Assembly: GCA_017631635.1 (NCBI GenBank)
Contig: JAGBSX010000022.1
Coordinates: forward strand, 18,659 to 82,658
Length of the DNA: 64,000 nt
Direction: 5' to 3'
Source of the DNA: Clostridia bacterium
GTDB taxonomy: Bacteria > Bacillota > Clostridia > Christensenellales > RUG350
Part shown: piece by piece, positions 3,595 through 28,645 of the stretch
Numbering within the stretch: the stretch's first letter is position 1
Layout: every line of letters starts with the position of its first letter
The notes under the pieces: model-generated
Told to the model about the DNA's origin: nothing
Databases searched by the model: none
What the model saw: the letters and a program-made list of their open reading frames with translations, nothing else
Position numbers and translations under genes: made by a program

Positions 3595-4164
3595 ATGAAA
3601 GCAAAGATAGGTTTTTTGGCGTTTCATATACTATTTGCGCTATGCCAAGTGACTATGTCCGTATTGGGTATGCAACTGGTATCTCTAGCGTGCTACATAG
3701 CAGGCGCTGTGGTGGTGATAGTAGGATTGCTAGCATTTTTGCCTGGAGTGAGATTTTGGACAGGTATTTCGGAGTTTGGCTCTAGATTTGAGGCGAACAA
3801 TATCCCTACGGCATTTGTCACTATGATAATTACTATGCTGATAGGTGGTGCGATAGCGTATATCCCACATTTTTTGGGAGAATTAGGATTGTTTGCTCCT
3901 ATATTTAGTTATTTGGTAGCATTGTTTGTAGGACTCAAGATTATCGCAGAGAATAGTCAGTGGCAGTACTACTTGGGAGGTGCTACGCGCTGGATGGGCA
4001 AATTAGTCCCTTGCGTGTATATAGTGGCTATATCTATCATCATATTGCCTGTACTCAATCCTTATATAGTAGTCGGCCCTGCGTTGCAAATAATACTTAT
4101 GATAGTCGCATCCGTATTCCATCTGGTTCGCACCATTTTGGTGGTAGTCAACGACCCGTTTTAG
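3595..4164 (+). CDS. Hypothetical polytopic membrane protein
   Basis: 189 aa, about 5-6 hydrophobic helices, SD GGAGGAG 5 nt upstream. No family recognised. Confidence 0.6.
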   Translation: MKAKIGFLAFHILFALCQVTMSVLGMQLVSLACYIAGAVVVIVGLLAFLPGVRFWTGISEFGSRFEANNIPTAFVTMIITMLIGGAIAYIPHFLGELGLFAPIFSYLVALFVGLKIIAENSQWQYYLGGATRWMGKLVPCVYIVAISIIILPVLNPYIVVGPALQIILMIVASVFHLVRTILVVVNDPF

Positions 4165-4173
4165 GAGGCTAGT

Positions 4174-4788
4174 ATGAAGAAATCAGGATTATTTTATATC
4201 ATACCGTTGATGGTGGTCGCATTGTTTGTCGTGGTATTACTATGGATATATTCTGCCACCGATTTGTTCTATAGTGAAAATTACAAAATCATTGACACGA
4301 TAATAGGTGTGTTTTTGATAATATTAGGGATATATTGTGCGTGTGTTATATTTTTATCAGCAGATGAGAGTGATAGAGAAAGTTTTGCAGATTTGCTCAA
4401 GCAAATAGGTGGAGTCATAGGTACGGGTATAGCAGGATTGATGATATACAACGCAGGCGTTTACTTCTTGTCAGGATTGAATAGTTTGTCCACTATGATA
4501 CTATACGATATCATGATGTACGGCAACTATGCCGTAGCGATTATATGCTTGATAGGTACTATCAAGATGTTTAAGCCTGATGAGTGGCACTCATTGTCTA
4601 TTCGCTCCAAGATTGTCCGTCCACTAGTGGTCGTATGTTCGGTGGTAGGGTTGGTCAATTATATGGGCTCTCTCATAAGTGGAGAATTGCAATCGATTGA
4701 TTACACTATGCTAGTGTTATCCTTGACTATATTCGTAGTCAATCTAGCCTATGTGCTAATATCTTCATATTATCGTGACAATTATTAA
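4174..4788 (+). CDS. Hypothetical polytopic membrane protein
   Basis: 204 aa, multiple hydrophobic helices, SD AGGAGG upstream, tightly coupled to the previous ORF. No family recognised. Confidence 0.6.
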   Translation: MKKSGLFYIIPLMVVALFVVVLLWIYSATDLFYSENYKIIDTIIGVFLIILGIYCACVIFLSADESDRESFADLLKQIGGVIGTGIAGLMIYNAGVYFLSGLNSLSTMILYDIMMYGNYAVAIICLIGTIKMFKPDEWHSLSIRSKIVRPLVVVCSVVGLVNYMGSLISGELQSIDYTMLVLSLTIFVVNLAYVLISSYYRDNY

Positions 4789-6056: not shown

Positions 6057-6602
6057 TCAGTTTTCTTTTTTCTCGTTTCTGTACCTTATTACTTTGGCAG
6101 GATTGCCACCTACTATAGCGTACTCAGGCACGTCTTTAGTGACCACAGCACCCGCGCCTATTATGGAGTGGCTACCCACGTGCACGCCTGGTAGTATGGT
6201 CACACGACCACCTATCCACACGTCGTCACCTATGATTACAGGTTTCTCTGGCGAAAAACCTTGGTCACACATAGGTATATCTAGTCTATCAAATGCGTGA
6301 TTAGAGGTGTATATTATGCACTCTGGTCCCATCATCACGTCTTTGCCTATGACAACCTTACCGTGCATTTGAGCATTGATACCTACGCCGGATCTATCTC
6401 CTATCTCCATAGTCGAAGTTATCATAGCACCGTGCTCTATATTGACGTCCTTGCCTACGTATGCGAGAAAGTGTCTAGCAGACTTCTCTCTCAATTTGCG
6501 TGCTCTCTTGCCACCTTTGGCAAAGGAGCAAGGCATATTTTTGGCTATGTTGAAATATAGCCATATATTAAATCTACGAGATATTTTCTTAAATAAATTC
6601 AT
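6057..6602 (-). CDS. Hexapeptide-repeat O-acetyltransferase (maltose/galactoside acetyltransferase-like)
   Basis: 181 aa. Left-handed beta-helix repeats (IGDDVWIGGRVTILPGVHVGSHSIIGAGAVVTKDVP). Within the capsule locus. Confidence 0.85.
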   Translation of the reverse strand: MNLFKKISRRFNIWLYFNIAKNMPCSFAKGGKRARKLREKSARHFLAYVGKDVNIEHGAMITSTMEIGDRSGVGINAQMHGKVVIGKDVMMGPECIIYTSNHAFDRLDIPMCDQGFSPEKPVIIGDDVWIGGRVTILPGVHVGSHSIIGAGAVVTKDVPEYAIVGGNPAKVIRYRNEKKEN

Positions 6603-6606
6603 AATT

Positions 6607-8121
6607 TTACTCCTCTTGACTAGGTTGTTGAGTGTCCTCGGTAGATGCCGTGCTTTGGGAATCAGCAGTTTTCTTGTTTCTTGAGAGCAAGGACTTTAGA
6701 GTGTTTAGTAGATATGTAAATGCAGGTATCTTGAATATGATAGATATACTCACGTATATCACTACACCTGTCACTACTTGCAAGGCTAGTATTAGGTAAG
6801 GGTGTATAGTCAGGAAATTAAATAGATATACTATCACTCCCATTAGCGCTGTGAGTAGCAGGTAGGGGATCATATCTTTGAGTTGCTTGCCTAGGCCATA
6901 TCCATATATCTTGCCATTAGGGATAGCGAGTATTAGGTATTGAAGCAGTAGAGTGACTACTTGAGATAGCACTATCCAAAATACGCCGAATTGTAGGGCT
7001 ATAAATAGTAATATAAGTCCCAAGCATTTGACTATTACACTAATGATTAGTACGAGTGAACTATGACCTCTGGCTTGTATCATGACAGAATTGATACTTA
7101 ACAAAGGATGTATCGCGTAATACATGCACATTAATTGCATGAATATAATGCAACCATTCCACTTGGAGGTGTATAGCAATGGTATTAGGGTAGGAGCTAC
7201 TATCGCAAGACCACACATCACGGGAAACATTAAGTAGCATGCTGCAGATACGCAATTAGATACTGTATGTAGTATATTTTTGTCATCTTGCTTAGCTGAG
7301 AGTACAGGCATGAGTACCGAACGGATAGGATTGATAGCAAATTGACCTATCAATTTTGGCAAGGACGAACCTTTGCTAGAGTATGCTAGGTCTTCGGACG
7401 AATATTTTTTGCCTATGGCTAGAGAATTTGCCTCTGCACATATCGTCTCAAATAGGTTAGTAGCCAAAATTTTCCAACCGTATCCAAATAGAGCCTTGGT
7501 CCTTTGCCACGAATAGCATAGGTGAGGACGCCATTTTGTCACGAAGTATAGAGTAAATTTGTTGATAACTATCTCTATTAGGTTGTGAGCTACTAGTGCC
7601 CATACGCCGAATCCATTGTAGGCAAGGACAATACCTATGATACCTGAGACCAAAGAACCACACAAAGTCGCGAAGAAAAATTTCTTAAACATATAATTCT
7701 TGGTAGCGTATGCTTGTTGTACTGAGCCAAATGCGCCTATAGGTAGTCTCAATCCTAGTACGCGTAGTACGTCGCACAGTACAGGTGTTTCTAACCAAAC
7801 GGATATCGCAGGAGCAGATACGAAGAGAATAGCGTACAATACTATCGCTATCGCCATAGAGGTGTAGAATACCGACGAATAGTCTAGTTCATCAGTATCT
7901 TTCTTTTGGATAAGAGAGGTCGTGAATCCCGAACTAACGAAGGTGTCACATATTGTTATAAATATGCTAGTGAGTGCTATTACACCGTAATCTTCGGGAT
8001 ATAGTAGTCGGGCTAGTACGACTGATAGCACGAATGCCACCATTTTTGTGCCTAGTTGTTCGAGGAATTTCCACATCATACCAGACATTGTGATTTTTCT
8101 ATAATTTACCTTTTCTGCCAT
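6607..8121 (-). CDS. wzx: Polysaccharide flippase (Wzx, MOP superfamily)
   Basis: 504 aa, about 12-14 TM helices, N-terminal pattern typical of polysaccharide biosynthesis/export proteins. Locus context. Confidence 0.8.
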   Translation of the reverse strand: MAEKVNYRKITMSGMMWKFLEQLGTKMVAFVLSVVLARLLYPEDYGVIALTSIFITICDTFVSSGFTTSLIQKKDTDELDYSSVFYTSMAIAIVLYAILFVSAPAISVWLETPVLCDVLRVLGLRLPIGAFGSVQQAYATKNYMFKKFFFATLCGSLVSGIIGIVLAYNGFGVWALVAHNLIEIVINKFTLYFVTKWRPHLCYSWQRTKALFGYGWKILATNLFETICAEANSLAIGKKYSSEDLAYSSKGSSLPKLIGQFAINPIRSVLMPVLSAKQDDKNILHTVSNCVSAACYLMFPVMCGLAIVAPTLIPLLYTSKWNGCIIFMQLMCMYYAIHPLLSINSVMIQARGHSSLVLIISVIVKCLGLILLFIALQFGVFWIVLSQVVTLLLQYLILAIPNGKIYGYGLGKQLKDMIPYLLLTALMGVIVYLFNFLTIHPYLILALQVVTGVVIYVSISIIFKIPAFTYLLNTLKSLLSRNKKTADSQSTASTEDTQQPSQEE

Positions 8122-18725: not shown

Positions 18726-18817
18726 ATCAATCCTTCTCTTGTTGTAGCGCTAGTGTTTGCAACACAACGTTTTGTTTTTATTTTTCTACTACGCTCCGTA
18801 GGTAGACGCAACTATAG

Positions 18818-18846
18818 TTATATATAACTATACCAAAAAAAGTCAA
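18818..18846 (-). promoter_or_regulatory. Candidate promoter of the polysaccharide operon
   Basis: Minus strand reads TTGACT (18846-18841), then 16-17 nt, then TATATA/ATATAA. The -10 lies inside a perfect 20-nt palindrome (18813-18832). Confidence 0.4.
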
Positions 18847-19046
18847 TAAAAATAGGCGTGTACCAAGAATTTTTCTACGATACCACCTATTTTAACTCTT
18901 TTTACTCAACCACGCGACAAAACGACGGTGTTTTTTCTCTCACGCTTGCAGTTTTGGAGAGTGAGTCTAGTCAATTATAAAGGTACTAAGCGACTGACTA
19001 TCCACAACTTATGCAGGTTTTTTATAATTTTGTACTCGCTATAAAT

Positions 19047-19152
19047 AAAAAAAGCACCACTGTGGTGCTTGCAGCACGGAAGCCCGCATCCTCTTCCCTT
19101 TAAGCGGCCAATTACTTGTAAAGATCTAGAGTCGATACAAGAGTAATGCTAC
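19047..19152 (-). ncRNA. Candidate small RNA 1 (family not recognised)
   Basis: Bounded by the perfect consensus promoter at 19159-19187 and an intrinsic terminator, AGCACCA-CAG-TGGTGCT (19053-19069) plus U7. About 105 nt with an internal 10-bp bulged hairpin. No ORF with a credible SD. Confidence 0.5.
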
Positions 19153-19156
19153 TGTA

Positions 19157-19197
19157 ATATTATATGCAAATATTTATGATTTGTCAACAGGTTTTTT
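19157..19197. repeat. 41-bp direct repeat, copy 1 (carries the sRNA1 promoter)
   Basis: ATATTATATGCAAATATTTATGATTTGTCAA(C/T)AGGTTTTTT is identical to 19407-19447 except for one base. Confidence 0.9.
19159..19187 (-). promoter_or_regulatory. Perfect consensus sigma70 promoter (TTGACA-17-TATAAT) for sRNA1
   Basis: Minus strand reads TTGACAaatcataaatatttgcaTATAAT, with an A-rich UP-like tract upstream. Confidence 0.7.
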
Positions 19198-19299
19198 ATA
19201 AAAAACTAATAAACAAACAAATTTGTTACGTCGTCGAGGCTGTTGACGGCACAAGCAAGAAAATAATGCCTATAATGACTGCATATAAAGCAAAAGTAA

Positions 19300-19402
19300 A
19301 AAAATAAAAAGGAAAGTAAACACTTCCCTTTGAAAATCCCATGCGAGGTAGATATTTATAACCCCTACCACCACGTCCGAAACGAGCGCATGCGGTCTTT
19401 TC
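19300..19402 (-). ncRNA. Candidate small RNA 2 (family not recognised)
   Basis: Bounded by the perfect promoter at 19409-19437 and a terminator, GGGAAGU-GUUU-ACUUUCC (19311-19328) followed by U5AU7. About 100 nt. Contains a GGTAG...CTACC hairpin and CATGCG/CGCATG pairing. Confidence 0.5.
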
Positions 19403-19406
19403 ACAT

Positions 19407-19447
19407 ATATTATATGCAAATATTTATGATTTGTCAATAGGTTTTTT
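19407..19447. repeat. 41-bp direct repeat, copy 2 (carries the sRNA2 promoter)
   Basis: See copy 1. The two copies are 250 bp apart. Confidence 0.9.
19409..19437 (-). promoter_or_regulatory. Perfect consensus sigma70 promoter (TTGACA-17-TATAAT) for sRNA2
   Basis: Sequence identical to the sRNA1 promoter. Confidence 0.7.
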
Positions 19448-19506
19448 TAATTTTAATAAAAAAAGGTACATAACGACCACAAGGCAACGGTATATGTCTT
19501 TCTTGA

Positions 19507-19535
19507 TTGACAAAATATAAAAGGAGGCATATAAT
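19507..19535 (+). promoter_or_regulatory. Perfect consensus promoter TTGACA-17-TATAAT facing the small-ORF cassette
   Basis: TTGACAaaatataaaaggaggcaTATAAT. The spacer contains the AGGAGG SD of ORF 19538, and the ATG lies only 3 nt after the -10, so the promoter and SD/ATG signals overlap. Confidence 0.55.
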
Positions 19536-19537
19536 AT

Positions 19538-19741
19538 ATGAGAGATTGGGATGAAAACAAGCATCCAAGAAACGCACTTGGAGAATTTACAAACAAAAGC
19601 ATTGCAGAATTAAAATCTGAAATCATAGAAATTATTCCCTATAAAAAAGAGCCGATTATACTTGGAGGTGTAATATGGAAGAGAAAGATAAAAACAAAAA
19701 AATACCCTATAGATTTACTTGTCCTATACCGGTGGAAGTAG
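19538..19741 (+). CDS. Hypothetical 67-aa protein with an N-terminal WDENKHPRNALGEF motif
   Basis: AGGAGG lies 10 nt upstream. The 3' 67 nt overlap the next ORF in the -1 frame. The motif resembles the KHPR(D/N)xxGxF motif that I recall from phage and conjugative-element proteins (unverified). Confidence 0.45.
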   Translation: MRDWDENKHPRNALGEFTNKSIAELKSEIIEIIPYKKEPIILGGVIWKRKIKTKKYPIDLLVLYRWK

Positions 19742-19869
19742 TAGGATACGTTGAGATAAGTGAAGAAGATAGAAAAAAGTATAGAGAACAACATATAAAA
19801 TCTCAAAAATATTTTGGTATAGAAACCAATCCTGAAAATATTACAGAAATAGACTACGACAACTTATAA
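19675..19869 (+). CDS. Hypothetical 64-aa protein, paralog 1 (PYRFTCP...EISEEDRKKYREQHIK...NPENITEIDYDNL)
   Basis: SD GGAGGTG 4 nt upstream. 64 aa, about 75% identical to ORF 19953. Confidence 0.6.
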   Translation: MEEKDKNKKIPYRFTCPIPVEVVGYVEISEEDRKKYREQHIKSQKYFGIETNPENITEIDYDNL

Positions 19870-19952
19870 TTGAAAAAAAAGCACCTGATTTATAGTTGTT
19901 GATATGTATAATGATAAAGACAAATATATTGTGTATTTAAAAGAGGTACAAT

Positions 19953-20147
19953 ATGAAAAAAAGTGATAAGAAAAACAAACTACCCTATAGATTTACTTGT
20001 CCTATGCCAGGCAGGTCTGTAGGACATGAAGAGATAAGCGAAGAAGATAGAAAAAAGTATAGAGAACAACATATAAAAACGCTTAAACATTTTGGAATAG
20101 AAATCAATCCTGAAAATATTACAGAAATAGACTACGACAACTTATAA
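19953..20147 (+). CDS. Hypothetical 64-aa protein, paralog 2
   Basis: SD AAGAGG upstream. Tandem duplicate of 19675-19869 (278-bp period). The C-terminal 17 aa are identical; a variable patch follows the CP motif. Confidence 0.65.
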   Translation: MKKSDKKNKLPYRFTCPMPGRSVGHEEISEEDRKKYREQHIKTLKHFGIEINPENITEIDYDNL

Positions 20148-20227
20148 TTAAAAAATATAAAGTTACTGTGCGAATATATGAAAAAAACGAGACTATGAAT
20201 TTGAAATAATAAGAGAGGAAAATGTAA

Positions 20228-20503
20228 ATGACTAATGAAGAATATATTAATTATATCAAAGAACTGATTTCTTCTTCCAATGAGGCTGATTATGTGGCTT
20301 TTGTTGGAGTTAAGTATAACATTAAGGATAAGATAATGTCATTTATCAAAAATAACGATATATCGTGTAAGCACCTGTGGGAAGATAGTGTTGAGGGGGA
20401 TAAATCAACTGAAGATTGGCACAAACTTATACTTTATGTAACTGATTTGTGCAACAAAGTAAACCCAAGTGGAAAAGTAGGATTGTATATAAAAAACAAA
20501 TAG
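20228..20503 (+). CDS. Hypothetical 91-aa protein
   Basis: SD GAGAGGA upstream, then an ATG-TAA-ATG start-stop-start arrangement. No family recognised. Followed by a terminator. Confidence 0.55.
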   Translation: MTNEEYINYIKELISSSNEADYVAFVGVKYNIKDKIMSFIKNNDISCKHLWEDSVEGDKSTEDWHKLILYVTDLCNKVNPSGKVGLYIKNK

Positions 20504-20516
20504 CAAATATCAAAAT

Positions 20517-20550
20517 TAAAAAAGCACTTGCGATAGCAGGTGCTTTTAAT
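20517..20550. terminator. Bidirectional rho-independent terminator (small-ORF cassette / nadR)
   Basis: 10-bp stem AAGCACTTGC/GCAGGTGCTT (one G-U pair), loop GATA, flanked by an A-run and a T-run. Confidence 0.7.
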
Positions 20551-20567
20551 TTGCAAAGAAAGTAACT

Positions 20568-21602
20568 TCAAAACTGTGTTGTGATTCCAAGCTCTGCAAT
20601 CAGTTTTTTAGCTGTTTCAAAGCGTTCCAAGTAGTCTCCGGAGACACAATGGTATGTAATATTGTTTTGCGCGAGTGCTTGTTTGATTTGCTGACTGTAC
20701 CTTTCTCTGTCCTCATGAATTTTCTTATTTCTTGTACCGTCTTGGATAAATTCCACATCCGGCTCAAGAAACAAAACCAAATCCCACTGTGTCATATCGC
20801 TGATTGCAGTAGCCATTTTTTCACATATTTCAATTTCTTTGGGATTTGTCAAAATCAACCGAGAGTAAAATAACGTTGTAACTGCATCGGTATCCACGAA
20901 CAAGACGCGATTGCTTTTTTTGGCAGCATCCATGATCTGCAAGCGTTGACGGAGTAGATTCTCATATAAATCCTCCGCCATCATAAAATCCTCACCGCCG
21001 GCATAATCCGATGTGATTCGCCCGTATTCCGCCACATAGTTAGTATTATAGGCAAGTGCTAAATTTTGAACAAGAGTGCTTTTTCCGGTGCTTTCTCCGC
21101 CTACGACCAAAACCTTTCGTGCATAATAATCCTTACAAACATCCGGTATATAGTCCCAATGCGCGCTCGCCCAAGTACGTATTTCCGTTGAACTGATCGG
21201 AACCTCTTCTCGATCAAAATAGATGACTTGGCTTTCCGGACAGTATAGGGATTCAAATCGATTTGTTCCCAAATAGTCGCTTCCGCAAAATACTACATCA
21301 ATGTGTTTACCAATGGCACTCTTAATGTCCATGGCACCCTTTTCCCAATAATAGTCGGTATTATATTCTTCTTTCGATACAGCTTTGTCTTCGATCAAAA
21401 GAATTTTGACATTTGGTAGATGTCTCGTACTGTTAAGAATCCAACGATATCGAAGCTCTTTAGGTGTTGATTCGCGTCCTTCGCACCAACTGATCACAAT
21501 ATACAGTTCTTCGCATACGGATGCAGCTTTAATGATATCGGATATATGCCCTAAATGAAGGGGATCAAAGGATCCTCCGTACATACCTGTTTTATATAGC
21601 AT
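20568..21602 (-). CDS. nadR: NadR-type bifunctional NMN adenylyltransferase / ribosylnicotinamide kinase (no HTH domain)
   Basis: 344 aa. N-terminal GGSFDPLHLGH nucleotidyltransferase motif, central P-loop GGESTGKST. Overlaps pnuC by 11 nt. Confidence 0.8.
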   Translation of the reverse strand: MLYKTGMYGGSFDPLHLGHISDIIKAASVCEELYIVISWCEGRESTPKELRYRWILNSTRHLPNVKILLIEDKAVSKEEYNTDYYWEKGAMDIKSAIGKHIDVVFCGSDYLGTNRFESLYCPESQVIYFDREEVPISSTEIRTWASAHWDYIPDVCKDYYARKVLVVGGESTGKSTLVQNLALAYNTNYVAEYGRITSDYAGGEDFMMAEDLYENLLRQRLQIMDAAKKSNRVLFVDTDAVTTLFYSRLILTNPKEIEICEKMATAISDMTQWDLVLFLEPDVEFIQDGTRNKKIHEDRERYSQQIKQALAQNNITYHCVSGDYLERFETAKKLIAELGITTQF

Positions 21603-22284
21603 TTTTCTGACGAGCCTCCTTTTCCCATTTGATTAACATGATAATAGCATTACCCAAGTATACTCCCCACATCAGAAGTGTGGCAATATTGTCACTTCCG
21701 TTGCGGAAATCACACCACCACATATATATGCTGAAAACATCCACCGCAATCCAGATCCACCACTGCTCTGCATACATACGAATAGAGATAACCATAGCAA
21801 CCACAGATGAAACTGTAGTAAAGGCATCAACGAATGGCATTACGTCCCCAATGTGTTTAAGAAGCAATCCATACAAATATGTTGCTATAGCTATTGTAAC
21901 AATTAACAATGCAATGCCATACGGACGCATCTTGCGTTTTTCGACCTCACCGGTTTCTGTATTGATATGCTTGCTCCATACGATGAGACCTATAAATTGC
22001 ATAGGAATATAAAAAAACACATTTAGCATTGTTTCTCCATATAGTGCTGCTCGGTAGGAAATAATTGCGTATAACACACAATTCACAAACCCGAACAGAT
22101 AGGCTGATAGTTTTCCTTTTCCGGTGCAGACAACGCATGCAACACCTGTTAGGGAAGAAATAATACCCATTAATGAATCTCCCCAATAGATAGACAGCCC
22201 AGTAATTGTTGCGCAGGTCAGAATCAACCAAAAAACCTCAAAAGGTTTCCAACCGGTTAACTCGTTTTTGATTAATTTTCGCAT
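21592..22284 (-). CDS. pnuC: Nicotinamide riboside transporter PnuC
   Basis: 230 aa, 7-8 TM helices, PnuC-like N-terminal pattern (TGWKPFE...W...CVV...GK...). Operon with nadR. Confidence 0.85.
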   Translation of the reverse strand: MRKLIKNELTGWKPFEVFWLILTCATITGLSIYWGDSLMGIISSLTGVACVVCTGKGKLSAYLFGFVNCVLYAIISYRAALYGETMLNVFFYIPMQFIGLIVWSKHINTETGEVEKRKMRPYGIALLIVTIAIATYLYGLLLKHIGDVMPFVDAFTTVSSVVAMVISIRMYAEQWWIWIAVDVFSIYMWWCDFRNGSDNIATLLMWGVYLGNAIIMLIKWEKEARQKNAI

Positions 22285-22305: not shown

Positions 22306-22334
22306 ATTATAGCACAAGAGCTAACTAAAATCAA
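22306..22334 (-). promoter_or_regulatory. Predicted promoter of pnuC-nadR
   Basis: Minus strand reads TTGATT-17 nt-TGcTATAAT (extended -10). The 5' UTR is short, with SD AGAGGGTGA. Confidence 0.65.
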
Positions 22335-22481
22335 GGTATAGCCTTGTATATCACCAACACGGAGTGTTGTATATCATCATTGCGAAAGCGAATCCAGCCC
22401 CAAAGGTGCTGATGATATCCACGCTAAAGCGTGATGATATCCACGACTGCCTCGTGATGATATGCCATCGCTTTCGCAATG
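22332..22481. repeat. Array of dissimilar short hairpins joined by conserved ATATCA(C/T) / ATGATAT(C/G) linkers (array H1)
   Basis: Hairpins at 22332-46, 22355-69, 22395-411, 22420-33 and 22442-56. Linkers: TATATCAC, TATATCAT, ATGATATC x2, ATGATATG. A 14-bp long-range inverted repeat (22378-22391 / 22468-22481) encloses three of the hairpins. Confidence 0.6.
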
Positions 22482-22483
22482 GA

Positions 22484-22522
22484 TAAAAAAAATACTGCAG
22501 AAAATATATCCTTTTCTGCAGT
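22484..22522 (-). terminator. Rho-independent terminator of ssrA
   Basis: 11-bp stem ACTGCAGAAAA/TTTTCTGCAGT (22494-22504/22512-22522), 7-nt loop, U-run on the minus strand. Confidence 0.8.
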
Positions 22523-22528
22523 CTTTTT

Positions 22529-22884
22529 TGGTGGAGGTGAGGAGAGTCGAACTCCCGTTCAATACAATAGCCGATAATCCTTCTACATACTTAGTCGGTA
22601 TATTGTCATCTTACTACTATCGCCTACCGACAGGCTATAATAGTCGTTATCCCGTATTACCCTATATCCCTACGGGAGTCAGGTATAGAGTTGTCTGCAT
22701 AGTTGATGCCGAGTCTAATACTGCAGAAGATACTAGGTCGACATCGCTGACTTAGGCAGCGAAAGCAAATGAATTGCTGTTAGTTTTGTTTGCGTTTAAA
22801 TTTAATTTTTCGTTTTGACAGAGCCGAAACCTCTGGTATGCTTCTATCACCCTCTACTTGTACTGTCGAATCCGGTACACCCCC
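22529..22884 (-). ncRNA. ssrA: tmRNA (transfer-messenger RNA, SsrA)
   Basis: 5' end is GGGGGUGUACCGGAUUCGACAG. 3' end is GGGAGUUCGACUCUCCUCACCUCCACCA (T-arm plus acceptor with encoded CCA). The G3:U pair is an alanine identity element. Internal tag ORF at 22793-22752: GCA AAC AAA ACU AAC AGC AAU UCA UUU GCU UUC GCU GCC UAA. Confidence 0.9.
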
Positions 22885-25795: not shown

Positions 25796-26140
25796 ATGGA
25801 TAGAGAATTGACTTGTGTAGAATGCCCTATGGGATGCGCTATATTAGTGACTATCCGTGACGGCGAGATAGTGAGTATAGGTGGCAATAACTGTGCTAGA
25901 GGCAAACTTTATGCCCAAAACGAAGTCTTTACTCCCAAGAGAGTAGTCACCTCTACCGTCAAGTTGGAGGGGGGAGGTATGCTCCCAGTCAAGACGGACA
26001 GACCTGTGGATAAGGACAAGATATTTGAAGTGATGGCTGTCATCAATTCGCTAATAGTTGCTGCTCCTGTGAAGGTAGGAGAGGTAGTGGCTAGCGACGT
26101 GTGTGGAGCAAATATCATCAGCGCCAAAGAAGTATTGTAA
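25796..26140 (+). CDS. DUF1667-type small Cys-containing protein (third subunit of the cluster)
   Basis: 114 aa. The N-terminal LTCVECPMGC motif is typical of DUF1667. This three-gene synteny is conserved in Firmicutes. Confidence 0.75.
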   Translation: MDRELTCVECPMGCAILVTIRDGEIVSIGGNNCARGKLYAQNEVFTPKRVVTSTVKLEGGGMLPVKTDRPVDKDKIFEVMAVINSLIVAAPVKVGEVVASDVCGANIISAKEVL

Positions 26141-26188
26141 AGATAAAAAGCCACGCTATAGCCGAGTCCCTACAAGGGATTCGGCAAC

Positions 26189-26410
26189 TAAATAAATCCT
26201 AAACGGATTTGTGATATTCGTCTAACGACGAGTGATATTGCCTATCGGCAGTGTTGCCGAGCAACTTTAGTTGCGAACGCCAACTGCCTTGGCAGTTATA
26301 TTTGCCTATGGCAAGTTAAGGATTTATTTAATATAACTTTGGCGTTAGCCAAAATATAACGCAAGATTTGTCTTGCATATCACTTTTAGCCACAGGGCTA
26401 AAAATATCAC
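26189..26410. repeat. Array of dissimilar short hairpins joined by GTGATAT / ATATAAC / ATATCAC linkers (array H2)
   Basis: Hairpins at 26218-31, 26239-50, 26261-74, 26284-95, 26302-14, 26338-53, 26361-76 and 26384-403. Linkers: GTGATAT x2 (26211, 26232), ATATAAC x2 (26331, 26354), ATATCAC x2 (26377, 26404). A 12-bp long-range inverted repeat (26189-26200 / 26319-26330) encloses the first five. Confidence 0.6.
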
Positions 26411-26552
26411 TATATTAACTTAATCTTTTGTGGATAAGAAAAGCCCACCATATTTCGCATATAAGCGAAGTATAGTGGGCTACACTTTTGTTATAAACTA
26501 AAAATCCCTTATAGTGAACATCCTATTGCTGCTTTTTTCGTGCGACGAAATG

Positions 26553-26581
26553 TAAAAATAGCCTCATCATAGATGAGGCTA
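26553..26581 (-). terminator. Rho-independent terminator of the aldo/keto reductase gene
   Basis: 10-bp stem TAGCCTCATC/GATGAGGCTA, 3-nt loop, U-run on the minus strand. Confidence 0.75.
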
Positions 26582-26598
26582 ATTTATCGTAGGTTTAG

Positions 26599-27579
26599 TT
26601 ATTTGAGTATCAAGTCTATCTTGTCTAGGGTATCTTTGTCCCACTCTAGATTTGAGATAGCGCCTACGTTTTGGAGTATTTGTTCTGGGGTAGATGCTCC
26701 TGTGAGTACCGTGGTGACTACACCGTCGCGTAGTATCCAACTCAGAGCCATTTGAGACAAGGTCTGACCTCTAGATATGGCTATATCGTTGAGCAAATTT
26801 AGTTTGGTGACGATATCTGGAGTGATATTTTTGCCTTTGCCTAGCGCTATCATCTCGTCAGTCACGCCACCTAGATATTTAGTTGACAATGCGCCCCTAG
26901 ATAGAGGACTAAATACTGCTAGTCCTAGTCCGTTGTCTCTAGCGTAGTCCTTGAGACCATCTTCTTCTATCCAGCGATTGAGCATAGAGTATGAGGGTTG
27001 ATTGACTACAAATGGAGTGCCTAGTTCTTTGAGAATACTTTGCATCTTGGCAGTAGTCTCTCTCTTGTAATTGCTGATACCTACGTACAAGGCTTTGCCT
27101 TGACGTACTATCTGGTCTAGTGCGTGAGCAGTCTCCTCTAGTGGAGTGTGAGGGTCGTATACGTGATGATAAAATATATCTACATAATCTAGTCCCATAC
27201 GGCGTAGGCTTTGGTCTAGTGATGATATTAGATATTTTCTAGAGCCGTTGCGATCTCCGTATGGTCCTGGCCACATCTCGTAGCCTGCCTTGGTAGAGAT
27301 GACTAATTCGTCACGATATTCTCCTAGTCCCCCTTTGAGAACTTTGCCAAAATTTGTCTCTGCCGAGCCATTGTAGGGGTGGCCGTAGTTGTTGGCGAGG
27401 TCAAAGTGAGTGATACCTGCATTAAACGCCGTGTAGCACATATTCTCCACGTTGTCAAAATCATACGCCGAACCGAAGTTTTGCCATAGTCCTAGTGAGA
27501 CGGCAGGTAATTTTAGACCACTATTGCCTAGTCGATTGTATATCATATGGTCGTATCTATGGTCGGATATCTTAATCAT
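26599..27579 (-). CDS. Aldo/keto reductase (YghZ / L-glyceraldehyde-3-phosphate reductase-like)
   Basis: 326 aa. LGNSGLKLPAVSLGLWQNFG, then FDLANNYG...GSAE. Typical AKR family pattern. Confidence 0.85.
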   Translation of the reverse strand: MIKISDHRYDHMIYNRLGNSGLKLPAVSLGLWQNFGSAYDFDNVENMCYTAFNAGITHFDLANNYGHPYNGSAETNFGKVLKGGLGEYRDELVISTKAGYEMWPGPYGDRNGSRKYLISSLDQSLRRMGLDYVDIFYHHVYDPHTPLEETAHALDQIVRQGKALYVGISNYKRETTAKMQSILKELGTPFVVNQPSYSMLNRWIEEDGLKDYARDNGLGLAVFSPLSRGALSTKYLGGVTDEMIALGKGKNITPDIVTKLNLLNDIAISRGQTLSQMALSWILRDGVVTTVLTGASTPEQILQNVGAISNLEWDKDTLDKIDLILK

Positions 27580-27712: not shown

Positions 27713-28645
27713 ATGGTGTTTGAGAAGATAATGATGAAAATTCAAATATTCTTCATATGGTTAATAGTGGCAATCATGGTATGTTTTGTCGCAGTAGCCG
27801 AGATAGCGCCTTTTAGATATTTTGTCAAGTATCATTGTCACTATTGTGATGACCACACTAGTGGTATATTGCAATTTGACGCTGATGAGAAGATGATATA
27901 TTACACTTGCGAATTGTGTGGCGATAGGACGGATTCTTTTAGACCTAGAGAGATTACCGACCTAGGTACTACCGAGGTAGATTGCGAGGGTGATTATTAT
28001 TCTATTCAATTGTGGGAGTATGGCTTTGGTGGATGGTCAATGACCCAGAGATTGTATTTTGCCCAAAATACAGGCGAAGTCAACCACAAACATACTAGGA
28101 TTATCCAAGAAGCTATCCCCAATACTTGTACTACAGACGGTCGTACGGCAGAGATATATTGTGATGATTGCCACAAGACTATCCAAAATGCTACCGTCAT
28201 ACCTGCGGCTCACGATACTTATGCGATAGGACGTATAGAGCCTACCTGTACTAGTGAGGGACATAGTGGTCATATCTATTGCCACAGTTGCGATTACGAA
28301 GATGCAGTAGGATGTACTATACCTAAACTAGAACACGATACTTATATCGAAGGATACGTTCCTGCTACCTGTGCTAGCACAGGATATACTGGTGATACCA
28401 AGTGTCACGATTGCGATTACTTAGTACGGGGCGAACTAATTAGACTCACAGAACACGACTTTAGAGAGATTGCATCAGGTATAGAACCTACTTGTAAGAC
28501 GACAGGAAGGTCTCCTCGAGTAGTGTGCAATGATTGTGGATACGATGAGGGTGGAGATTTTCTCACCCAAGTAGATCATCAATACCATAGACCTTCTATA
28601 TTTAGCAAAGAAGAATGTATATGGTGTGGAGAAACTAAATATTGA
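27713..28645 (+). CDS. Membrane-anchored Cys-rich protein with tandem zinc-ribbon/knuckle-like modules
   Basis: 310 aa. N-terminal TM helix, one CxxC...CxxC ribbon, then four ~40-aa repeats of the form H-x8-10-P-x-C-x3-G-x5-6-C-x2-C. Confidence 0.7.
   Translation: MVFEKIMMKIQIFFIWLIVAIMVCFVAVAEIAPFRYFVKYHCHYCDDHTSGILQFDADEKMIYYTCELCGDRTDSFRPREITDLGTTEVDCEGDYYSIQLWEYGFGGWSMTQRLYFAQNTGEVNHKHTRIIQEAIPNTCTTDGRTAEIYCDDCHKTIQNATVIPAAHDTYAIGRIEPTCTSEGHSGHIYCHSCDYEDAVGCTIPKLEHDTYIEGYVPATCASTGYTGDTKCHDCDYLVRGELIRLTEHDFREIASGIEPTCKTTGRSPRVVCNDCGYDEGGDFLTQVDHQYHRPSIFSKEECIWCGETKY

Follow-up and report, generated by a model that had tools for sequence, protein, structure and literature searches.

The array of small hairpins denoted H2 occupies the spacer between a DUF1667 gene and an aldo/keto reductase gene in a 64-kb stretch of the genome of an uncultured Christensenellales-like bacterium (referred to below as the window, whose numbering is used throughout). 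The DUF1667 gene closes an operon on the plus strand (DAO, Pyr_redox_2 and DUF1667 according to Pfam) that ends at position 26140, and the aldo/keto reductase gene (26599–27579) is encoded on the minus strand; these gene coordinates bear out the 458-bp convergent spacer (26141–26598) downstream of DUF1667 that had been pointed out in an earlier reading of the window (hereafter the original prediction). Comparison with its homologs shows, at the level of sequence, that H2 is one copy of a non-coding, palindrome-rich dispersed repeat whose 5' half is the Gut-1 motif of Rfam (RF01706).

The spacer starts with the left arm and the beginning of the loop of an ancestral operon terminator (AGATAAAAAGCCACGCTATA, 26141–26160), recognized by alignment with the empty sites of related lineages, whose right arm is now separated from it by an inserted element of 363 bp (26161–26523), a Gut-1 family member of the GTGATAT sub-family, with edges defined by the empty sites and by the alignment with five other copies (these features and those that follow are given on the plus strand unless stated otherwise). 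The element opens with an 11-bp left-end hairpin with one G·T pair (GCCGAGTCCCT/AGGGATTCGGC, 26161–26185), which holds the left arm of an imperfect terminal inverted repeat (26167–26181). It is followed by the leader CAACT-AAATAAATCC-loop-GGATTT and by GTGATAT-plus-hairpin units, which make up the region matched by Gut-1 in cmscan (26185–26259), the two forward units being GTGATAT + TCGTCTAACGACGA and GTGATAT + TGCCTATCGGCA (26211–26250; the same hairpins occur in contigs L318 and L388). A segment of ~44 nt private to H2 (26251–26294), with overlapping small hairpins at 26253–65, 26261–74 and 26279–95, is bounded by a GGCAGT direct repeat, stands in place of the third linker and corresponds to a gap in all five other aligned copies. 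Then come the forward unit GTTATAT + TTGCCTATGGCAA (26295–26314), the centre GTTAAGGATTTATTTA (26315–26330; GGATTTATTT in the family), complementary to leader positions 26189–26204, and the reverse half (26331–26410), composed of ATATAAC, hairpin, ATATAAC, hairpin, ATATCAC, hairpin and ATATCAC, which reads as forward-type units on the minus strand. The right-end module (26411–26523), kept in L282, L287, L318, L386 and L388, comprises TGTGGATAA, a hairpin with 20-bp arms (26442–26481) and the right arm of the terminal inverted repeat (26503–26517). Beyond the element the ancestral operon terminator resumes with its decayed right arm and its T-run (TATTGCTGCTTTTTTCG, 26524–26540, again from alignment with the empty sites), followed by the bidirectional terminator of the aldo/keto reductase gene (26555–26585), which is outside the element and conserved in the empty-site lineages.

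GTGATAT is the forward linker at 26211 and 26232 and GTTATAT that at 26295; in the reverse half the linkers are ATATAAC (26331, 26354) and ATATCAC (26377, 26404). The GTGATAT, ATATAAC and ATATCAC linkers listed in the original prediction were thereby confirmed; the small hairpins (26218–31, 26239–50, 26261–74, 26284–95, 26302–14, 26338–53, 26361–76 and 26384–403), the long-range inverted repeat and the opening hairpin were all recovered exactly where it had placed them, and the nested hairpin it reported behind the array was measured at 26442–26481. The long-range inverted repeat (26189–26204/26315–26330) extends over 16 nt with 94% complementarity and has a perfect 12-bp core; the terminal inverted repeat has 15-nt arms (26167–81/26503–17) that are 87% complementary, or match at ~16 of 21 positions in our reading of the alignment across copies, and this end structure is absent from the GTGAAAT-type sub-family. 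Successive linkers are spaced by 21, 23 or 27 bp, i.e. about two helical turns. Nowhere else in the window are perfect hairpins so dense, and the minimum free energy of its 360-nt stretch folded as RNA is -132 kcal/mol, compared with -77 ± 4.8 kcal/mol for dinucleotide shuffles (z = -11.4 on the plus strand and -9.6 on the minus strand). The suggestion that the GTGATAT and ATATCAC linkers pair with each other to form a large branched structure found no support: the minimum free energy fold does not use linker pairs, and a register test on 21 informative elements gave 32/63 for the mirrored and 36/63 for the parallel register. The hairpins had also been called dissimilar, which holds within one element, but each of them is conserved between element copies. 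As a side observation, TGTGGATAA at 26429–26437 is identical to the DnaA-box consensus and is conserved or nearly conserved between copies, with TGTGGATAA, TGCGGATAA, TGTGGACAA and TGTGGATAT in other copies, which may be a coincidence.

Similarity to the Gut-1 motif and to metagenomic copies

A permissive cmscan search aligned Gut-1 with positions 26185–26259 (plus strand) over the complete model (positions 1–77 of 77), with a score of 42.4 bits and an E-value of ~3e-7. It is the only Rfam match at a meaningful E-value within H2, but its score is lower than the Gut-1 gathering score (50 bits), so that H2 falls outside the family at the curated threshold, and the gathering-threshold scan of the whole window reported tmRNA alone. 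With this result ROOL, GOLLD, riboswitches, a pnuC/NAD+ leader, tRNA-like structures and retron RNA were dismissed as candidates. The low score of H2 can be attributed to its private segment: both GUGAUAU linkers are aligned in the Gut-1 model, and the third linker is lost to the copy-specific 44-nt insertion. Homologs score above the gathering value, namely L318 (51.4 bits), which can be aligned with H2 from end to end, and L316 (58.9 bits), which shares its layout and several hairpins, and the GTGAAAT-type copies, which share the leader, reach 61.7–79.1 bits. A covariance model of our own (R1), covering the leader and the forward half, gave 38.1 bits on H2 (E-value 1e-6).

The Gut-1 consensus, CAaUGAAAU-hp-GUGAAAU-hp-GUGAAAU-hp-UGAAAU (where hp is a hairpin), is itself a hairpin array with conserved heptamer linkers, and like H2 it consists of a leader and three short hairpins between GUGA(A/U)AU linkers. 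Gut-1 was described as an RNA motif from human-gut metagenomes only, with host and function unassigned, and was rated 'Y' for RNA (Weinberg et al. 2010, Genome Biol 11:R31, PMC2864571); Rfam classes it as a small RNA (sRNA) gene, and full-text literature searches found no later characterization after 2010. The alignment of Weinberg et al. (PMC2864571) contains GUGAUAU variants, and its flanks display an inverted AUAUCAC half and a position behind tRNA genes or terminators: in BAAZ01000095 a stop codon and a terminator are followed by GUUAUAU, GCGAUAU and GUGAUAU units and then by four AUAUCAC units, and BAAZ01025322 is located behind a tRNA and its terminator. The Rfam model covers 77 nt of an element of ~200–360 bp, and whereas Rfam describes an sRNA gene, H2 belongs to an insertion-polymorphic multi-copy repeat with DNA-type hairpins in a Christensenellales-like genome. 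The family has been known since 2010, and H2 is one of its divergent members, which limits its novelty; new here are the full architecture, in which the 77-nt model is one arm of a larger two-part element, the host lineage, given by the placement of a Gut-1 copy in a Christensenellales-like genome, the insertion in a terminator loop, and the evidence against the sRNA label.

The GTGATAT-type copies are found in six metagenome contigs. Five of them (L282, L287, L318, L386 and L388) align to H2 from the left-end hairpin to …CCCTTATAGNAACNCC and have unrelated flanks; the left-end hairpin also opens the copies in L282, L287 and L386, whose upstream flanks differ. The hairpins TCGTCTAACGACGA, TGCCTATCGGCA and TTTTAGCCACANGGCTAAAA recur between copies, and one hairpin displays a compensatory series from TCGTC/GACGA through TTGTC/GACAA to TTGCC/GGCAA. 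The right-end module with TGTGGATAA, the 26442–26481 hairpin and the right terminal-inverted-repeat arm is common to the sub-family, and all five copies with a placeable right boundary have a T-run ~10–20 nt from the right end. In L386 the joined flanks rebuild a strong terminator hairpin, which is split by the copy as in the window. H2 thus has what is generally asked of a dispersed repeat, i.e. the same sequence in unrelated contexts and an orthologous empty site.

For the wider family we searched with the leader pattern AAATAAATCC-loop-GGATTT-GTGAWAT, common to H2 and to one match in the viral collection. It retrieved 15 specific matches in viral contigs and at least 120 stretches in metagenome contigs, giving at least 146 homologous elements in all, 131 of them unique among the matches listed, which underlie the family counts of layout and context given below. 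Generic DNA patterns with three linkers had yielded mostly tandem-repeat noise among the matches listed for the viral collection, a problem solved by the leader-specific pattern. The original prediction, which offered a dispersed element family or a class of structured 3'UTR or non-coding RNA, fits under both labels, with copies in unrelated contexts and a 5' half that is Gut-1, and further family members do exist in metagenomes, including the five full-length copies with unrelated flanks. The trivial explanation, in which H2 is a local by-product of degenerate stacked terminators and belongs to no family, draws on the tendency of convergent-gene spacers to accumulate terminators; the z-score of -11.4, the family of at least 146 homologs and the full-length alignment with copies in unrelated flanks refute it and reduce its probability to practically nil.

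The order of elements in the family is: end hairpin or terminator, leader CAAYG-AAATAAATCC-loop-GGATTT, about three GTGAWAT-plus-hairpin units, centre GGATTTATTT, which is the reverse complement of the leader, and three to five inverted ATWTCAC-plus-hairpin units. The full two-part layout, counted when a leader-complementary centre was accompanied by at least two reverse linkers, is present in 91 of 123 evaluable elements, with three forward units in 72 of the 91 and 3–6 inverted ATWTCAC linkers. Forward and reverse linkers shift together between the sub-families (GTGAAAT with ATTTCAC, GTGATAT with ATATCAC). No covariation between the leader and the centre was seen by eye.

The operon terminator and the genomic context of the family

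In five contigs of sister lineages, whose DUF1667 protein is 91–95% identical to that of the window (L057, L058, L059, L061 and L062), the spacer is just 92–94 bp long and carries a plain intact terminator; alignment places AAAAAGGCACGCAGTATAGCGTGCTTTTTT at the corresponding position in L057, L058 and L059. The window still has this terminator's left arm and loop (…AAAAAGCCACGCTATA) and its decayed right arm (TATTGCTGCTTTTTT…), but they are 363 bp apart, hence the array is an insertion into the terminator loop. The element splits the operon's own terminator, and its leader end points toward the 3' end of the DAO/Pyr_redox_2/DUF1667 operon. The spacer, which the original prediction had found unusually long for convergent gene ends, owes its length to this insertion, and in annotation its 458 bp are best described as a 94-bp spacer plus an inserted element. 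In contigs that other samples yielded for this species, the array is identical; among species-representative genomes the best match of the DUF1667 protein has 65% identity, and at none of the 46 Christensenellales loci from such genomes is the DUF1667 gene followed by an array.

A third lineage (L054, L055 and L064) carries, after the DUF1667 stop codon, ~100 bp homologous to 26426–26539 in inverted orientation, so that the right-end module of the window is opposite in orientation to that of L054 and L064. In L054/L055, whose DUF1667 protein is 93% identical to that of the window, an IS30-family-like transposase gene (HTH_38 + rve, 6592–7569) replaces the aldo/keto reductase neighbor. The inverted homolog and the IS30-like gene indicate that the spacer downstream of DUF1667 is a rearrangement hot spot. 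Contigs from several samples break at 26187, 26465, 26510, 26528 and 26534, as would be expected of assemblers meeting a repeat. An invertible segment bounded by the 26167–81/26503–17 repeats was considered and rejected: the breakpoints are not at those repeats, and a multi-copy repeat accounts for them better. In L050 (1493–1540; same species, sample ERZ27256965) the sequence is identical to the window up to 26510 and then continues into unrelated sequence (AACGGCAACCGCAATATAGTCGAGGGTTTTTTTGATG…), which reflects either a structural variant or a join made in assembly via another element copy.

The position of H2 at a terminator is typical of the family. As judged from the sequences surrounding the copies, family members are shown to sit at intrinsic terminators, most often directly behind tRNA, tmRNA or rRNA-operon genes. 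A T-run ends 5 nt before the leader in 107 of 124 elements (consensus TTTTTT-CA(A/G)(C/T)G), 47 of 129 elements lie 32–51 nt behind a co-oriented tRNA or tmRNA gene, and the upstream neighbor points the same way in 64 cases but is divergent in 10. In L304 four near-identical copies are packed into 1.5 kb where an rRNA operon ends; they follow two different tRNA genes, both with the same terminator behind them. Two copies per contig were found in L266, L277, L315 and L345.

Several neighbors of the elements were recorded in passing. L165 (IMGVR_UViG_3300028832_000052) is a GC-rich phage-like contig with two forward-only GTGATAT arrays ~500 bp apart, one of which reaches 58.2 bits with the Gut-1 model. 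The two arrays lie on either side of a small gene, all in the same direction, and would be transcribed inside an operon. By its appearance, the small gene may encode a Prp-type cysteine protease. In one species group (L260, L280, L284, L308, L319, L325, L335, L337, L374 and L384) the element is directly followed by what we take, by eye, to be a truncated IS256-type transposase-like fragment (…TTNAVESINSSFRKVTKKGAFPNE…). In L261–L264, L266, L333 and L341 a small gene (product MAESKLRELS…IGANIREA) lies downstream of the tRNA-linked element, and its product, again by appearance, may be a four-helix-bundle protein of the 23S rRNA intervening-sequence type.

Evidence for DNA-level and RNA-level readings

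We consider it rather probable that H2 is a mobile DNA repeat acting through hairpins in single-stranded DNA. Such an element would be non-autonomous, in the manner of repetitive extragenic palindromes and their mosaic clusters (REP/BIME), REPINs or miniature inverted-repeat transposable elements (MITEs), it would be maintained and spread via hairpins formed in single-stranded DNA, and its movement would depend on an enzyme encoded elsewhere. An effect on RNA may be secondary: read-through transcripts would gain a stable stack of hairpins, which could strengthen termination or block 3' exonucleases. The mobile-DNA and RNA readings are not mutually exclusive, since REP and BOX repeats also act on RNA. 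The main competitor, which we think unlikely, is that Gut-1 is a structured RNA, either a trans-acting sRNA or an element of 3' untranslated regions, whose hairpins expose single-stranded GUGAWAU (or GAA) linkers for binding by a protein that recognizes RNA, or else block 3' exonucleases. In that case selection would have kept the dispersed copies where tRNA genes and operons end, as functional genes or as cis elements.

The stems and loops bear on this choice. Covariation in the stems is strong (in as many as 17 of 37 sequences, both partners of a pair have changed), and the many compensatory changes speak for a structured RNA, as does the observation that orthologous copies differ mostly in the loops. 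However, of the 1226 stem pairs counted in 221 distinct hairpins, 1188 are Watson-Crick pairs, 8 are G·T, 13 are A·C and 17 are of other kinds; wobble pairs are neither common nor favored over A·C on either strand, against what an RNA would lead one to expect. The loops are polar: in the ATWTCAC sense the most frequent are C-GAA-G (40), C-GCA-G (14), C-GCAA-G (11), C-GTTA-G (10) and C-GGA-G (8), and loops of the type G..A outnumber T..C by 130 to 6. RNA GNRA tetraloops need a purine at the third position, but the tetraloops of the family are GNRA in 21 and GNYA in 24 cases, without purine preference at that position, and the cGNAg loops are on the strand opposite to the Rfam orientation. The main loop motif, C-GNA-G or C-GNNA-G, matches that of the DNA mini-hairpins GCGNAGC and GCGNNAGC, which are extraordinarily stable and occur at single-strand DNA origins and priming sites (PMC13037366); GCGAAGC and GCGAAAGC are literally present in copies, in a second array of the window (H1, see below) and in L054. 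The known d(GCGNAGC)-type hairpins are isolated motifs at single-strand DNA origins and promoters, whereas those of the Gut-1 element form arrays in a dispersed chromosomal repeat. Finally, the element has two-fold symmetry, with both strands reading forward units and then inverted units. The lack of wobble excess, the polar DNA-type loops and the two-fold symmetry together favor a DNA-level reading, and a single-strand RNA model leaves the mirrored reverse half without a function.

The context of the copies can be read both ways. The classification by Rfam and the 'Y' rating of Weinberg et al. (PMC2864571) support an RNA, as does the orientation of the copies, the leader end being turned toward the upstream gene's 3' end in 64 of 74 cases. 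On the other hand, 107 of 124 copies are located behind, not before, an intrinsic terminator and are expected to be poorly transcribed; no promoter-like site was seen upstream of H2; and the element is present or absent between very close lineages, its insertion having destroyed a terminator. Of the features expected of a trans-acting sRNA gene (its own promoter and terminator, tolerance of G·U but not of A·C pairs), H2 showed no promoter-like site and the family no such pairing preference. The insertion polymorphism, the targeting of terminators and tRNA 3' ends, the few wobble pairs and the DNA mini-hairpin loops suggest that the sRNA label of Gut-1 is mistaken.

Several observations weigh against a mobile DNA repeat. 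The window and 935 kb of loci that bear elements yielded no transposase or recombinase linked to the element; there was no transposase among 761 clustered neighboring open reading frames (ORFs), and no mobilizing gene among the 19 window proteins analyzed with Pfam; tblastn with an IS200 TnpA query detected one IS200-like gene in the 935 kb, in a separate insertion sequence that lies ~800 bp away from an element. A consistent target-site duplication is not seen in the flanks of six copies (in the window, the closest approach is TATA to the left and TATT to the right). There is only one canonical copy in the 64 kb of the window, and the homolog of the right-end module in L054 and L064 is inverted and without arrays. 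The original authors read the stem covariation as evidence of RNA, the Rfam structure lengthens each stem by linker-derived A-U and U·G pairs that are possible on the GUGAAAU strand alone, some loops are of the C(UUCG)G or C(UACG)G type, and the forward-only arrays of L165, between co-directional genes of a phage operon, are expected to be transcribed in the sense direction; the last two points are also direct arguments for the structured RNA.

Another possibility is that the DNA is a binding platform, in which the 7-bp linkers ~21–27 bp apart are protein sites (arm-type sites of an integrase, iterons, centromere-like sites or sites of single-strand initiation by a primase). The spacing of about two helical turns, the direct and inverted sets beside tRNA and tmRNA genes, reminiscent of attP arms, the concerted change of forward and reverse linkers between sub-families, the conserved TGTGGATAA with its DnaA-box consensus in the right module, and the mini-hairpins known at single-strand DNA priming sites (PMC13037366) agree with such a role. 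We nevertheless regard it as quite improbable, since double-strand binding gives no reason for palindromic spacers, covarying arms and cGNAg loops, integrase or replication genes are not adjacent to the arrays, and H2 lies in the terminator of a metabolic operon, not in an attachment site or a replication origin.

Among known repeats, the mobile DNA element we favor resembles in style the REP/BIME and REPIN sequences of Proteobacteria, which are mobilized by RAYT transposases (Y1 HUH): both are multi-copy extragenic palindromes in direct and inverted clusters at gene 3' ends and in convergent spacers, with a short conserved motif per hairpin and, as in REPINs, a two-fold doublet. Unlike REP/BIME, the Gut-1 element conserves a 7-nt linker and a leader, its hairpins all differ within one element, the host is a Firmicute and the GTAG motif is absent; no RAYT gene was found among the 19 window proteins (Pfam) or next to elements (tblastn with the IS200 TnpA query). 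BOX, RUP, Correia and ERIC sequences (MITE-like) are likewise small, non-coding, modular, structured and intergenic, with presence that varies between close strains, and the H2 sub-family has imperfect terminal inverted repeats that may be comparable to theirs, but neither a target-site duplication nor a parent insertion sequence with matching ends was found, and the targeting of terminators and tRNA 3' ends and the linker-hairpin arrays are features of the Gut-1 element and not of these repeats. Palindrome-associated transposable elements (PATEs) of the IS200/IS605 type have subterminal hairpins at both ends, no target-site duplication and a single-strand DNA hairpin signature, as does the Gut-1 element, whose constant left junction (T-run + CAAYG, 107/124) may belong either to a target or to the element itself, the H2 sub-family having its T-run after the right end instead; unlike in PATEs, no linked Y1 transposase was found, and internal arrays of 6–8 hairpins are not known for PATEs. 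Class C group II introns and IS1397/ISKpn1 (in REP loops) insert at or in the loops of intrinsic-terminator or palindromic hairpins, which is similar to the insertion of our element, but the latter has no intron domains, reverse transcriptase or transposase and is far too small.

Other repeat systems were set aside on anatomy. A CRISPR or TIGR array would have repeats of at least 20 nt, spacers that are not palindromic and cas or tas genes beside it, whereas H2 has 7-nt repeats, spacers that are perfect palindromes and metabolic neighbors. Integron attC and omega-heptad arrays were rejected on anatomy as well, the R-box match being 6/7 at best and the hairpins too short.

As a wider and more tentative proposal, Gut-1 as a whole may be a hitherto unrecognized, terminator-seeking class of mobile DNA of gut Clostridia rather than an sRNA gene: two-fold symmetric arrays of d(cGNAg)-type mini-hairpins with a 7-nt recognition motif, which an enzyme would propagate through single-stranded DNA and which would home to terminator loops and T-runs, especially behind tRNA, tmRNA and rRNA genes. 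If H2 is indeed mobile DNA, a REP/REPIN-like system would be added to the gut Firmicutes, the elements would be natural arrays of ultra-stable DNA mini-hairpins, and the recurrent assembly breaks at such loci would be partly explained.

H1 and other observations in the window

The window contains a second, non-canonical hairpin array, H1 (22330–22481), with (A)TGATATC and TATATCA(C/T) linkers, located between the tmRNA terminator and the pnuC promoter, to which the original prediction had ascribed the same architecture as H2. This holds for the hairpin style and the linker core, the hexamer TGATAT/ATATCA of the H2 linkers being found at 22348, 22371, 22413, 22435 and 22458 (linkers ATGATATC and TATATCAC), but the family leader is absent and H1 is detected neither by the Rfam Gut-1 model nor by R1. 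At the orthologous position L054 has an array with ATGAAATC linkers; the Gut-1 model scores it at 41.9 and 32.8 bits, and it has its first hairpin in common with H1. On the strength of this comparison H1 is probably a degenerate relative of the family.

H1 is flanked on one side by a strong bidirectional terminator (22494–22522) of the tmRNA gene (22529–22884, minus strand; Rfam, 151.9 bits) and on the other by the extended -10 promoter TGCTATAAT (~22306–22334, minus strand) of an operon with pnuC and nadR-like genes (21592–22284 and 20568–21602). In L054 a tandem duplication of ~108 bp downstream of tmRNA (2504–2718) takes in the tmRNA terminator together with a portion of the ATGAAATC-linker array, and on the far side of the array a 164-aa ORF and Bac_transf occupy the place of the pnuC gene of the window; the 3' flank of tmRNA thus varies between lineages whose DUF1667 proteins are 93% identical.

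Elsewhere in the window, 1.8 kb (18726–20568) are free of ORFs of at least 100 aa. This region has a repeat of ~43 nt, ATATTATATGCAAATATTTATGATTTGTCAA[C/T]AGGTTTTTT, at ~19157 and ~19406, and two paralogous 64-aa ORFs (19675–19869 and 19953–20147), which like other small ORFs have no Pfam match. Pfam matches are likewise absent from three longer ORFs on the plus strand, of 189 aa (3595–4164), 204 aa (4174–4788) and 310 aa (27713–28645), the last of which is kept beside the reductase gene in all related contigs.

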